From a virus: a stretch of DNA of 64,000 nt. Position numbers and translations under genes: made by a program. The DNA lies in IMG/VR virus record IMGVR_UViG_3300021083_000196, positions 3,377 to 67,376 of that record; one strand, written 5' to 3'. This document shows positions 42,775 through 59,264 of this stretch, piece after piece. Under the pieces are notes generated by a model. That model searched no databases, was not told the DNA's origin, and worked only from the letters and a program-made list of their open reading frames with translations. Within the stretch, counting starts at the first letter, position 1; each line of letters starts with the position of its first letter.

Positions 42775-42849
42775 GCCTCTAAAGCATTGTTAGTGATGCA
42801 GTTGCCTTGTAAGCATCAGAAGTCGGCGCAACTCCGGCATGAGGCACCA
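42775..42849 (+). tRNA. tRNA-Thr(TGT)
   Basis: CT TGT AA loop; T-loop CGCAACT; CCA. Confidence 0.85.
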
Positions 42850-42994: not shown

Positions 42995-43429
42995 ATGAAA
43001 AAATGCATTAAATGTGAAAAAATAAAACAGTTAGATTCCTTTTATAAAAGAAATGACAGAAAAGATCGTTATTCTTCGTCATGTATTGAGTGCCAAAGAA
43101 AATATCTAAAAGAGCACTATCACAAAAATATCAAATATTATAAGGCGAAAGCCAGAAAAAATGATATTAACGCAATAGAACAAAGATTCCATTTTTTAGT
43201 GGATTATTTAAAAAATAACCCATGTGTTGACTGTGGAGAAGGCGACATTGTAGTCCTTCAGTTTGATCACGTTCGAGGAAAGAAATTTCGCAACATTTCT
43301 ATGATGCTACACAGAAAAATGTCATGGGAAAAAATACTTTTAGAAATAAAAAAGTGTGAGGTTAGGTGTTCAAATTGCCATGTTAGAAAAACGGCAAGGC
43401 AATTTAATTGGAAAAAATTGCATGTATAG
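42995..43429 (+). CDS. HNH endonuclease inserted in tRNA array 2
   Basis: CIKC...PCVDCGE.D...LQFDHVRG...KCEVRCSNCH. Confidence 0.88.
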   Translation: MKKCIKCEKIKQLDSFYKRNDRKDRYSSSCIECQRKYLKEHYHKNIKYYKAKARKNDINAIEQRFHFLVDYLKNNPCVDCGEGDIVVLQFDHVRGKKFRNISMMLHRKMSWEKILLEIKKCEVRCSNCHVRKTARQFNWKKLHV

Positions 43430-43496
43430 CTCAATGGAGTAGAGCACCAAGCTACGAACTTGGGGGTTAAGGGTTCGAGTCCTTTTACATGCGCCA
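43420..43496 (+). tRNA. tRNA-Arg(ACG)
   Basis: CCAAG-CT ACG AA-CTTGG; CCA. Confidence 0.92.
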
Positions 43497-43501
43497 ATTT
43501 T

Positions 43502-43575
43502 CTCGTAGTGACGGAATGGTTACGTGACGGTCTGCAAAACCGTTTATGGCAGTTCGATTCTGCCCTATGAGTCCA
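43502..43575 (+). tRNA. tRNA-Cys(GCA)
   Basis: ACGGT-CT GCA AA-ACCGT; U73; CCA. Confidence 0.92.
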
Positions 43576-43576
43576 C

Positions 43577-43668
43577 GGAAAGTTTAGTGCAGCGGCCTGC
43601 ACCCCGATCTTGAAAATCGGTGATAGTCAGCGATGGCTATGGGGATCGACACCACCAGCTTTCCTCCA
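43577..43668 (+). tRNA. tRNA-Ser(TGA)
   Basis: CCGAT-CT TGA AA-ATCGG; long variable arm; CCA. Confidence 0.85.
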
Positions 43669-43675
43669 ATTCTTC

Positions 43676-43764
43676 GGTGAGTTAACTTGGCAAGTGCCAA
43701 GCACGGTTTGCTAAACCGTTGGTGCCTTTACCGGCATGTGGATCAGGACCACATCTCTCCGCCA
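43676..43764 (+). tRNA. tRNA-Ser(GCT)
   Basis: ACGGT-TT GCT AA-ACCGT; long variable arm; G73; CCA. Confidence 0.85.
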
Positions 43765-43765
43765 T

Positions 43766-43842
43766 CGGTGTCGGCACAGGTTGGATTCTGGTCTCGACTG
43801 TAAATCGACGTAAATGTGGTTCGACTCCACAGGCACCGACCA
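43766..43842 (+). tRNA. tRNA-Tyr(GTA)
   Basis: TCGA-CT GTA AA-TCGA; C1:G72; short variable loop; CCA. Confidence 0.85.
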
Positions 43843-43849
43843 ATTTTAT

Positions 43850-43929
43850 AGGCATGTATCTCCTTTGTCTTCTAAACAAGTGAAAGAGTAATTGGACTCA
43901 TGTAGGTTCGAATCCTATCATGCCTGCCA
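43850..43929 (+). tRNA. atypical tRNA-Arg(TCT) lacking a canonical D-arm
   Basis: AGGCATG/CATGCCT-G-CCA, TTTGT-CT TCT AA-ACAAG, GTAGG-TTCGAAT-CCTAT; only 7 nt between acceptor and anticodon stems. Confidence 0.75.
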
Positions 43930-44037
43930 AAATATCCATTGCATTCTCTGGAGAACATCCGTTAGAGTCTTTTCTTGGGCATGTGCTCATGAGGAAACAA
44001 AATGTCAATCAGAAAAATCATAAGAGGAATCATCATA

Positions 44038-44253
44038 ATGTCAGATATCGCAGACAATGTTATCGCACTCCAAGGCGCAGTAAACTCGCTTACAACAGAA
44101 ATCGCTTCACTCACGGCAGCCGTTGGTGCTCTCCAAGCTCCTGCAGCTCCTACCGTAGACCTTTCTCCCGTGCTTGCGGCTATTGCTGACATCAAGGCTC
44201 AACTCGTTCCGACACCTGCTCCGGCAGCACCGGCGACGACTACAGGCTCATAA
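44038..44253 (+). CDS. small Ala-rich coiled-coil protein
   Basis: MSDIADNV after GAGGA; followed by a terminator. Confidence 0.7.
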   Translation: MSDIADNVIALQGAVNSLTTEIASLTAAVGALQAPAAPTVDLSPVLAAIADIKAQLVPTPAPAAPATTTGS

Positions 44254-44280
44254 CTTTATAAAAGCTATGATATATTAAAA

Positions 44281-44312
44281 AAAGCTGGGGGATAACACCC
44301 TCAGCTTTTTTT
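44281..44312 (+). terminator. intrinsic terminator
   Basis: AAAGCTGGGGG-ataacac-CCTCAGCTTT plus T-run. Confidence 0.8.
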
Positions 44313-44313
44313 G

Positions 44314-44342
44314 TTGCTTTAAAAACAGAATCATCATATCGT
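44314..44342 (+). promoter_or_regulatory. promoter for leader 3 (predicted leaderless mRNA)
   Basis: TTGCTT-17nt-TATCGT-6nt-ATG; no SD. Confidence 0.55.
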
Positions 44343-44348
44343 AGAACA

Positions 44349-44423
44349 ATGAAAACGAATTTGTTACAGCTCTGGCATCAACCGCTCCCACAACTGGGAG
44401 TTTTTGTGCTTGGGCGAATGTAG
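44349..44423 (+). CDS. attenuator leader peptide 3 (MKTNLLQLWHQPLPQLGVFVLGRM)
   Basis: Codons 5-16 are exclusively L/Q/W/H/P, matching the next six tRNAs. Confidence 0.8.
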   Translation: MKTNLLQLWHQPLPQLGVFVLGRM

Positions 44424-44475
44424 GCAATAACTCATAAAGTTATTAACCAACCCGCCCTAACAAGGCGGGTTTTTT
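44412..44475 (+). terminator. antiterminator/intrinsic terminator 3
   Basis: AACCCGCC-ctaacaa-GGCGGGTT plus T-run; GGGCG in the leader pairs with CGCCC around the AATAACT/AGTTATT stem. Confidence 0.85.
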
Positions 44476-44496
44476 GTTATTGAAGGAGAAATTAAA

Positions 44497-44579
44497 GGGG
44501 ATGTGATGAAATTGGTAGACTTCCCTGACTTAAAATCAGGGGCTTCGGCGTGTGAGTTCAAGTCTCACCATCCCCACCA
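44497..44579 (+). tRNA. tRNA-Leu(TAA)
   Basis: CCTGA-CT TAA AA-TCAGG; CCA. Confidence 0.92.
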
Positions 44580-44581
44580 AT

Positions 44582-44659
44582 GCCGGTGTAGCAGAATGGC
44601 AAATGCGGCGGTCTTAGGAACCGCGTCATCTGGAGGTTCGAGTCCTCTCACCGGCACCA
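44582..44659 (+). tRNA. tRNA-Leu(TAG)
   Basis: GCGGT-CT TAG GA-ACCGC; short variable region; CCA. Confidence 0.9.
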
Positions 44660-44665
44660 AATTAA

Positions 44666-44742
44666 CGGCATGTAGCGAAGTCTGGTATCGCGCTCCCCTT
44701 GGGAGGGAGAGATCGAAGGTTCAAATCCTTCTATGCCGACCA
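44666..44742 (+). tRNA. tRNA-Pro(TGG)
   Basis: CTCCC-CT TGG GA-GGGAG; C1:G72; CCA. Confidence 0.92.
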
Positions 44743-44746
44743 TTTT

Positions 44747-44820
44747 ACAGGGATCGTCTAGTGGCAAGACAAGGGCCTCCAAAACCTTTGACCGGTGTTC
44801 GATTCATCGTCCCTGTGCCA
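44747..44820 (+). tRNA. tRNA-Trp(CCA)
   Basis: CT CCA AA loop; G73; CCA. Confidence 0.88.
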
Positions 44821-44826
44821 GTCTGT

Positions 44827-44901
44827 GGTGTGTATAGCTCAAGGGTCGAGCGCGGGATTGTGGCTCCTGATATACGGGTTCGAGTCCCGTTACGCACCCC
44901 A
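44827..44901 (+). tRNA. tRNA-His(GTG)
   Basis: CGGGA-TT GTG GC-TCCTG; encoded G-1 and C73. Confidence 0.92.
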
Positions 44902-44904
44902 TAT

Positions 44905-44980
44905 TCCGAGGTCGTCTAAATGGCAAGGACATGTGATTTTGGCTCATATAATGTTGGTTCGAACCCAGCCCTCGGAACCA
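44905..44980 (+). tRNA. tRNA-Gln(TTG)
   Basis: TGTGA-TT TTG GC-TCATA; U1:A72; CCA. Confidence 0.9.
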
Positions 44981-45057
44981 CCCTTTACTTTGATAGAAAA
45001 ATGCTGTTAGATTTCTGAGCCGCAATGTCGCGGCTTCTCTGAAAGGAAATCTAAAAT

Positions 45058-59164: not shown

Positions 59165-59264
59165 TAGAGGAACATGCGATAAAAGAAATGCCGATTTGAA
59201 CGGCTATGCAGCTTTTTTAAAGCTGTGTTCAACCAATGAAGTATCTCTTATCTATCGCCATCTA
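59165..59264 (-). ncRNA. Y RNA-like 4 (Ro-binding stem plus T-arm hairpin)
   Basis: TAGA-TGGCG...TACTTCA...GCATGTTCC-TCTA; internal GCCG-TTCAAAT-CGGC. Confidence 0.75.

Follow-up and report, generated by a model that had tools for sequence, protein, structure and literature searches.

The window analyzed here, a 64-kb stretch of the 67,376-bp IMG/VR virus record IMGVR_UViG_3300021083_000196 (rated 96% complete), was found to carry at positions 43850-43929 a gene that is probably a functional transfer RNA (tRNA), tRNA-Arg(UCU), belonging to a phage-borne family with a re-wired core. On the sequence comparisons given below, we put the probability of this reading at about 80%. The gene has no D arm, and a segment resembling a D loop is found on the variable-arm side. 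Judged from covariation across the family, the conserved third helix is formed by C-N-N of the connector between the acceptor and anticodon stems with N-N-G just 3' of the anticodon arm, so that it encloses that arm; this helix is referred to below as the D-prime helix. The case for the function of the re-wired tRNA-Arg(UCU) is a comparative one throughout. The topologically re-wired family is apparently widespread and undescribed.

Layout of the gene at 43850-43929

All parts of the gene lie on the + strand, and the window holds one copy of the family. The acceptor, anticodon, and T arms of a canonical tRNA were all present. The 5' strand of the acceptor stem, AGGCATG (43850-43856), forms 7 of 7 Watson-Crick pairs with the 3' strand, CATGCCT (43919-43925), which is followed by a discriminator G (43926) and an encoded CCA (43927-43929), the whole 3' end spanning 43919-43929. 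The anticodon arm (43864-43880) has a 5-bp stem, TTTGT/ACAAG, whose first pair in this copy is T-G, and a 7-nt loop, CTTCTAA, with U33, A37, and the anticodon TCT (43871-43873), which reads AGA. The T arm (43902-43918) likewise has a 5-bp stem (GTAGG/CCTAT) and a 7-nt loop (TTCGAAT).

No D hairpin was found between positions 9 and 26. The sole sequence linking the acceptor and anticodon stems is the 7-nt connector TATCTCC (43857-43863), which consists of U8, A9, and one unpaired T (43857-43859, with TA at 43857-43858), the 5' strand of the D-prime helix (CTC, 43860-43862), and a single position-26-like nucleotide (C, 43863) leading from the D-prime helix to the anticodon stem. On the other side, 21 nt separate the anticodon and T arms. 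These comprise a spacer, TGAAA (43881-43885), between the anticodon stem and the 3' strand of the D-prime helix (GAG, 43886-43888); a T followed by the D-loop-like AATTGGA (43889-43896, with AATTGGA at 43890-43896), which would correspond by analogy to A14 A15 U16 U17 G18 G19 A20; and a tail, CTCAT (43897-43901), whose last T is position-48-like. The RNA would measure 77 nt plus CCA. The preliminary description had listed a perfect acceptor stem ending in GCCA, a canonical T arm, TCT within an anticodon arm, the connector TATCTCC, and the string GAGT-AATTGG-ACTC (43886-43899), and each of these was recovered at the position given for it. Since no terminator-like site was found by a consensus scan of the + strand between 41896 and 44276, the arginine tRNA gene is probably co-transcribed with the neighboring genes.

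Extent and carriers of the family

A blastn search with 1.1 kb around the gene returned two short matches that covered the gene core alone, and both lay in unannotated gaps in tRNA clusters, one in a crAss-like Bacteroides phage and the other in Microbacterium phage Zooman. With an 80-nt query, near-full-length relatives were obtained from phi92-like coliphages, an Erwinia phage, and Streptomyces phages. The deposited records of these relatives carried either no label at the site or the labels "tRNA-OTHER," "tRNA-Undet," or, in Streptomyces phage Mildred21, tRNA-Phe(gaa). The last of these is a probable mis-annotation, the 7-nt loop CTTCGAA of the Mildred21 gene (1195-1270 of locus L004 in our collection) reading TCG (Arg) and its GG being followed by A. 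A query from the Ile branch of the family matched 77 Streptomyces phage records; among the 40 matches listed, the site was unannotated except in two records of phage EGole, in which the copy at 75271-75334 was deposited as tRNA-Leu, again a probable mis-annotation.

One pattern scan of IMG/VR yielded at least 119 stretches. When the scan loci, the loci collected earlier, and the window were parsed, 111 of 125 matches passed the architecture test, giving 100 unique sequences; five of the 14 failing matches (L001, L037, L097, L070, and L089) were apparent members with imperfect stems. A larger set of 168 unique IMG/VR members was assembled from four pattern scans and parsed directly. The search patterns fixed GTA-R-Y-TGG, A-Y-G, and GGTTCRA; they placed no constraint on the acceptor, the connector, the anticodon, the base that follows GG, or the bases with which the fixed ones pair. 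A scan restricted to one genome for each prokaryote species gave 120 loci, of which 27 were members and 93 chance matches, and the ten member loci inspected were all in dense tRNA arrays save one in Mesorhizobium. As many as four re-wired Arg tRNAs (CCT, TCT, TCG, and GCG) were found within 1.9 kb of a single 185-kb IMG/VR contig (L095 954-2851).

Detection by tRNA finders and covariance models

The Rfam tRNA model (RF00005) aligned to 43850-43926 with an E value of 0.0032 over the entire window and 33.6 bits against a gathering score of 29, a score that is marginal although over the gathering score, the canonical tRNAs of the window scoring 47 to 66 bits. In the alignment the D arm was deleted, with 15 model positions set against 4 nt, and 18 nt were inserted in the variable region. 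ARAGORN called 21 tRNAs in the window in default mode, and 43850-43929 was not among them; nor was it called in mitochondrial mode, which permits missing arms. The preliminary description had suggested that standard scanners may miss the gene, and the same was true of the family at large. ARAGORN detected 3 of 99 members when they were tested with 40-nt flanks, and the Rfam gathering score was reached by 10 of 23 members in 20 loci (29 to 39 bits), most canonical tRNAs in those 20 loci scoring 40 to 73 bits.

A family covariance model, R1, was built from 100 relatives including the window copy. The window copy, as a training sequence, scored 84.6 bits with R1, and the top canonical tRNA of the window scored 26.6 bits. 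A search covering 100 of the approximately 440 collected loci gave 111 family matches at 50 to 91 bits, with canonical tRNAs at or below 36 bits and 2 matches at 41 to 44 bits. Members found solely by R1, and hence independent of its training, scored 50 to 76 bits; of the five apparent members with imperfect stems, L001, L037, L097, and L089 scored 64 to 77 bits, and L070 lay outside the searched sources. At 35 bits, R1 also scored a 72-nt tRNA-like sequence (L058 7359-7430 and L086 1409-1481) that has acceptor and T arms and AACTGGT and no recognizable anticodon arm.

A conserved helix enclosing the anticodon arm

The 100 members were aligned by MAFFT, and the fold was called by RNAalifold without a supplied structure. 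The consensus contained the acceptor, anticodon, and T stems together with a 3-bp helix between columns 12 to 14 and columns 44 to 46, just 3' of the anticodon arm. Across the 100 sequences, 95.6% of cells were paired, compared with 61.3% after shuffling and at most 47.6% when the partners were slid. All 7 acceptor pairs covaried (98.9% of cells paired), as did pairs 2 to 5 of the anticodon stem; in the T stem, part of which was fixed by the search pattern, 99.4% of cells were paired.

In the window, the D-prime helix pairs CTC (43860-43862), positions 4 to 6 of the connector, with GAG (43886-43888). Counts for this helix were taken from the direct parse, as MAFFT had misplaced one base in 6 rows of a helix column. 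Pair 1 was C-G in 168 of 168 members, the G being fixed by the pattern and the C free. Pair 2 was Watson-Crick in 167 of 168 and occurred in all four orientations (CG, 77; GC, 49; UA, 34; AU, 7), compared with a mean of 74.6 and a maximum of 93 in shuffles, and pair 3 formed in 141 of 168 (86.2 on average and 99 at most in shuffles). Members found only by R1 swapped the otherwise invariant C-G of pair 1 to A-T or G-C. The connector was 7 nt long in 153 of 168 members and 8 nt long in 15, and its third base faced the T after GAG (T/T in 140 of 168). The spacer between the anticodon stem and the helix measured 3, 4, 5, 8, or 11 nt across the family.

Tertiary-core signal

T8 and A9, both outside the search pattern, were invariant in 100 of 100 aligned members. 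After the D-prime helix, the family has T and then A-R-Y-T-G-G-N, a spacing that by analogy would be that of A14 R15 Y16 Y17 G18 G19 N20 in an ordinary D loop. The window copy has both U8/A9 and the downstream A-R-Y-U-G-G-N.

IMG/VR was scanned with all four combinations of the R15-like base and the base before the T stem. Members made up at least 111 of the 125 matches listed for A with T and at least 109 of the 118 listed for G with C; the complete scans for G with T and A with C gave 2 members among 47 matches and 9 among 27, respectively. The window copy is of the first kind, with A (43891) and T (43901). By these counts, the R15-like base varies together with the one preceding the T stem in the manner of a Levitt pair. 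Because both matched forms were present within several subtypes (differing in spacers and in 7- and 8-nt connectors) and with many anticodons, several independent switches at 15/48 are likely.

Amino-acid identity and probable decoding role

The anticodons of the 168 members were TAT (79), TCT (44), ACG (22), GAT (8), CAT (7), TCG (3), CCT (3), and GCG (2), to which the members found only by R1 added CCG. After GG, all 74 Arg members had A and all 94 Ile-type members had T, and the window copy, with A after GG and anticodon TCT, fits the Arg class. The discriminator was A in 94 of 94 Ile-type members; in Arg members it was G (34), T (21), A (18), or C (1). CCA was encoded in 54 of 74 Arg members and in 10 of 94 Ile-type members. 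In the available text of one source, bacterial Arg identity is assigned to A20, C35, U/G36, and A/G73, with A20 as "the main determinant" for the Escherichia coli arginyl-tRNA synthetase (ArgRS), and bacterial Ile identity to A73 and U20 among others (PMC9976931). Compared with this assignment, the base after GG in the family matches the synthetase identity rules.

The restriction to Arg and Ile-type anticodons was also seen in a motif-free search of 3.79 Mb for the architecture alone (a 7-bp acceptor, a 6- to 8-nt connector, an anticodon arm, 12 to 33 nt, and a T arm), and it holds for the tRNA clusters of loci chosen for having a member. Of 202 unique hits, 176 had the family motif, and the anticodon of each of these was of the Arg or Ile type. 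The remaining 26 included four or five family variants with slightly different motifs (TCG and GAT); the others are apparently canonical tRNAs in which the D arm was misread as an anticodon arm.

Of the 72 re-wired members in the 71 loci that have five or more canonical tRNAs, 9 had the same anticodon as a canonical tRNA of the stretch analyzed (5 of the 9 being CAT), compared with a baseline of 166 duplicated anticodons among 1,006 canonical tRNAs called by ARAGORN in the same loci, and the re-wired genes therefore fill anticodon slots otherwise lacking from these sets. In the window, the ARAGORN calls included a canonical tRNA-Arg(ACG) and no other tRNA-Arg(UCU). AGA accounted for 148 of 717 Arg codons (21%) in 64 crude open reading frames (ORFs) of the phage.

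Proposed architecture and mechanism

A single nucleotide joins the D-prime helix to the 5' strand of the anticodon stem, and the 3' strand of that stem reaches the helix through the 3- to 11-nt spacer; because of this one-nucleotide link on one side and spacer on the other, the helix could take the normal position of the D stem, stacked on the anticodon stem. The chain leaving the helix would enter the D-loop-like segment, whose GG would dock on the T loop, and the short tail would return to the T stem, with its last, Y48-like base pairing with R15. The usual L shape would in this way be rebuilt by a differently threaded chain, as though positions 10-21 had been relocated to the variable region. 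In the core of yeast tRNA-Phe, nucleotides 9, 45, and 46 lie against the D-stem pairs 12-23, 10-25, and 13-22, and nucleotide 21 lies on the 8-14 pair. Three new joints would be needed (from 9 to a D-stem strand, from 45 to the other strand, and from the end of the D loop to 46-48), and, given these textbook contacts of 9, 45, 46, and 21, they would link residues that are already neighbors. Two numberings fit: the connector strand would, by geometry, substitute for 22-25; going by sequence order, the conserved Y11-R24 pair would be represented by the invariant C-G.

For decoding, the host ArgRS would charge the re-wired tRNA via A20, C35, and U36, and RNase P, EF-Tu, and the ribosome would meet ordinary acceptor, T, and anticodon arms. 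The charged tRNA would then read AGA, which is frequent in the phage.

Weighing of alternative readings

Several observations weigh against a functional re-wired tRNA. The D-prime helix has just 3 pairs, the third of which is unpaired in 27 of 168 members, and pair 1 of the anticodon stem is unpaired in 48 of 100. The conservation of GTA-R-Y-TGG, A-Y-G, and GGTTCRA exists by construction, since these motifs were fixed in the search patterns, and the family counts are counts of sequences and not of independent events. The nearest-neighbor energy of the window copy was -16.6 kcal/mol with a GAGT/ACTC hairpin, -12.2 kcal/mol with the D-prime helix, and -12.4 kcal/mol with neither, and its single-sequence fold was no better than those of shuffles (z = -1.2). 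The three-dimensional picture was drawn from the textbook tRNA core. Public sequencing runs with window 43000-45000 comprised two DNA runs, labeled peat metagenome and perhaps the source sample, and no RNA run; they are silent on expression, and no evidence of expression, processing, or charging was obtained from them.

The hairpin that these energies favor is the one in the preliminary description, in which GAGT (43886-43889) and ACTC (43896-43899) form a D-like hairpin whose loop GG touches the T loop, leaving the 5' connector single stranded. It has a perfect 4 bp in the window, it is the minimum-free-energy fold, and it is better than the D-prime helix by approximately 4.4 kcal/mol under nearest-neighbor rules. 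Across the family, however, all four pairs were found in 1 of 168 members, the window copy itself, and three of the four in 23 members; pair 2 formed in 2 of 74 alignable rows, the outer helix was paired in 35% of cells, and the hairpin would occupy the same GAG that covaries family-wide with the connector, where its conserved partner in the window is CTC. One base separates the window tail from the common ACACAT, and the hairpin therefore looks like an incidental by-product. We regard the hairpin fold as very improbable, although competition between it and the D-prime helix in the window RNA is conceivable. The earlier idea that the elbow is rebuilt from the other side was right in spirit, in that a D-loop-like segment with a family-wide conserved GG lies on the variable side, but the structure conserved in the family is a different one from the hairpin proposed. 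A separate cloverleaf, with TTTGT...ACAAG as the D arm and GAGT...ACTC as the anticodon arm, was rejected: its second loop would be 6 nt long, its helix is not conserved, and its first loop carries the canonical U33, anticodon, and A37, matched by the identity positions.

The remaining alternatives accept the sequence features and differ as to use. A tRNA-like RNA with the same re-wired fold might act outside translation, as a decoy for a synthetase or for defense nucleases that cleave tRNA, or as a processing or regulatory element of the tRNA operon. Phage tRNAs are described as countering tRNA-targeting defenses in the accessible parts of three papers (PMC10264068, PMC11555353, and PMC11464382), the odd core might impair use by the ribosome, and CCA is encoded by just 10 of 94 Ile-type members. 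Against such a role, U33 and a purine at position 37 are retained in anticodon loops, the acceptor and T arms (the EF-Tu and RNase P surfaces) are canonical and covarying, and members occupy anticodon slots missing from the surrounding tRNA sets; in addition, the base after GG and the discriminator track the amino acid of the anticodon exactly, which points to recognition by a synthetase. We consider a role outside translation improbable. A decayed pseudogene, in which the D arm was deleted and junk was gained in the variable region, would fit the lack of an ARAGORN call, the marginal Rfam score (33.6 bits versus a gathering score of 29), and the presence of three other substandard tRNA-like genes in the same cluster. 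It is extremely improbable in view of the recurrence of the architecture in more than 160 distinct sequences of unrelated phages, with compensatory changes in every helix, the conservation of the synthetase identity positions, and the perfect acceptor and T stems and encoded CCA of the window copy. The earlier view of the gene as a tRNA-Arg(UCU) lacking a D arm is supported; the gene looks real and selected, and the match to RF00005 is more than chance.

Comparison with known tRNA architectures

With canonical tRNA-Arg, the re-wired gene shares the 7-bp acceptor, discriminator, and CCA, the 5-bp/7-nt anticodon arm, the TTCGAAT T loop, U8, A9, the GG motif, the A20-like base, C35, and U36, and a score reaching the RF00005 gathering score. 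It differs in that its D-stem-like helix encloses the anticodon arm and its D-loop-like segment sits between that helix and the T stem.

The D-armless mitochondrial tRNAs, such as animal tRNA-Ser(AGY) and those of nematodes, likewise have a short connector (7 nt here) and no D hairpin. In the extended-stem model for these RNAs, an extra helix effectively lengthens the anticodon arm, a further likeness to the window gene, and their elbow contacts are weakened or lost. Mitochondrial D-armless tRNAs are shrunken, whereas the window RNA is full size, and the re-wired family keeps the A14/R15/G18G19/N20-like and T-loop elements with covariation of the Levitt type. Moreover, the family is found in phages and bacterial tRNA arrays and with Arg and Ile-type anticodons only. 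The features of the mitochondrial type (reduced size, short variable region, degenerate elbow, and organellar genome) do not describe the window gene, which lies in a 67-kb virus record and has conserved GG and T-loop motifs. Structural flexibility of mitochondrial D-armless tRNAs is noted in the available portion of a 2020 review (PMC7609411).

Class II tRNAs (Leu, Ser, and Tyr) share with the window gene a long stretch between the anticodon and T arms. They have a normal D arm and a self-contained variable hairpin, whereas this stretch in the window gene pairs with the 5' connector, and no covarying variable hairpin beside a normal D arm was found in it. A second nonstandard design was encountered in the same arrays, namely, tRNA-Ile(UAU) genes of 88 to 95 nt with a normal D arm and a long variable-arm hairpin. 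Those of 90 to 95 nt lie at L130 4827-4918, L190 5589-5680, L209 5450-5544, L212 6013-6105, and L180 6336-6425. When the long genes were considered as a possible source of the re-wired family, their variable-arm loops, except at L152 2562-2649, were unrelated to the AAYTGG segment.

Circularly permuted and split tRNA genes of some algae and archaea also depart from the textbook order of segments, as the re-wired family does, and are processed to a canonical tRNA. A permuted gene was ruled out here, the ends already making a normal acceptor stem with CCA. Because the ends do so and no simple cut-and-join restores the canonical order, the mature RNA itself must, we infer, carry the new order.

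Full-text literature searches, with subscription journals outside their scope, turned up no account of a phage tRNA that is D-armless or re-wired. In the 2020 review of noncanonical tRNAs, as far as its accessible text extends, D-armless tRNAs are mitochondrial and phages or viruses are never mentioned (PMC7609411). A 2023 survey of structured RNAs in IMG/VR includes, in the part available, a candidate, DNAVirus_2961, that overlaps ARAGORN tRNA-Arg calls only sometimes (PMC10690425). DNAVirus_2961 might be the same family, in which case it would be a prior sighting.

Possible implications of a re-wired tRNA core

Charging and use of these RNAs would mean that the tRNA core tolerates a changed chain topology in free-living systems. 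Gene sets of phages and tRNA arrays would then systematically miss or mislabel Arg and Ile(AUA) decoders (as unannotated, tRNA-OTHER, tRNA-Undet, tRNA-Phe, or tRNA-Leu), and the missed decoders would bias analyses of codon usage and of why phages carry tRNAs. The exact A/U rule after GG offers a natural test of how ArgRS and the isoleucyl-tRNA synthetase (IleRS) read position 20 on a different scaffold, and the re-wired fold is a candidate scaffold for engineered tRNAs. Bench tests are made possible by cultured carriers, which include phi92-like coliphages, Streptomyces BE-cluster phages, and Microbacterium phage Zooman.

A broader reading, which we consider speculative and on balance unlikely, is that the family represents a tRNA architecture of a third natural kind, next to the cloverleaf and the truncated forms of mitochondria. 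The stem strand and D loop that make up the 5' half of the D arm would in effect have been shifted to the variable region, with the L core and synthetase identity preserved. Arg and Ile decoders of this kind would be retained by phages and mobile tRNA arrays because host factors that recognize or cleave the normal D arm or elbow would miss the re-threaded core, with charging by ArgRS or IleRS and use by the ribosome persisting. Among the factors escaped would be tRNA-targeting defense nucleases, toxins, and modification-dependent checks.

Neighboring features of the window and a possible RNase P-like RNA

Downstream of the gene, a small ORF (44002-44253, + strand) begins ATG TCA ATC AGA AAA ATC ATA AGA GGA, with two AGA and two ATA among its first 12 codons. 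An AGA codon in this leader, "leader 2" of the preliminary description, had been taken as independent support for a functional tRNA-Arg(UCU), and that support could not be confirmed. A Shine-Dalgarno-like AAGAGGA (44022-44028) stands 9 nt before a second in-frame ATG (44038) and includes the second AGA. The true start of the ORF may thus be 44038, with the rare-codon leader untranslated. Because both AGA codons (44011-44027) lie upstream of this ATG, the second one inside AAGAGGA, they may be untranslated as well.

Upstream, directly after a tRNA-Ser(UGA), lies a tRNA-Ser(GCU)-like gene (43676-43765, + strand) with a 6-bp D stem, a 4-nt loop, a long variable arm, an odd T loop (ATCAGGA), and an acceptor stem with two T-T mismatches. 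It was called by ARAGORN only in mitochondrial mode (43676-43757), was miscalled at relaxed thresholds, and had no Rfam match at E values up to 10. The adjoining tRNA-Tyr(GUA)-like gene (43766-43842, + strand) has a 7-bp acceptor stem, A and CCA, and a short variable region, a long variable arm being normal for bacterial tRNA-Tyr; it too was called by ARAGORN only in mitochondrial mode and scored 19 bits with R1. A weak tRNA-Thr(UGU) (42775-42849, + strand), with mismatches in the acceptor and anticodon stems, scored 31.5 bits with Rfam and was called by ARAGORN only at 90% thresholds. Distant from the main cluster, a 68-nt tRNA-Phe(AAA) called by ARAGORN on the - strand (59182-59249) was not supported by Rfam at the gathering score and may be a false call or a degenerate tRNA.

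Outside the window, in the tRNA cluster of phage Zooman, 221 nt between tRNA-Arg(ccg) and tRNA-Arg(cct) (L002 1645-1865) matched the Rfam model of bacterial RNase P RNA class A end to end (model positions 1-367; 53 bits; E = 1.9e-13), at a score that did not reach the gathering score of 100. By this match, the segment may be a miniaturized RNase P-like RNA inside a phage tRNA cluster.

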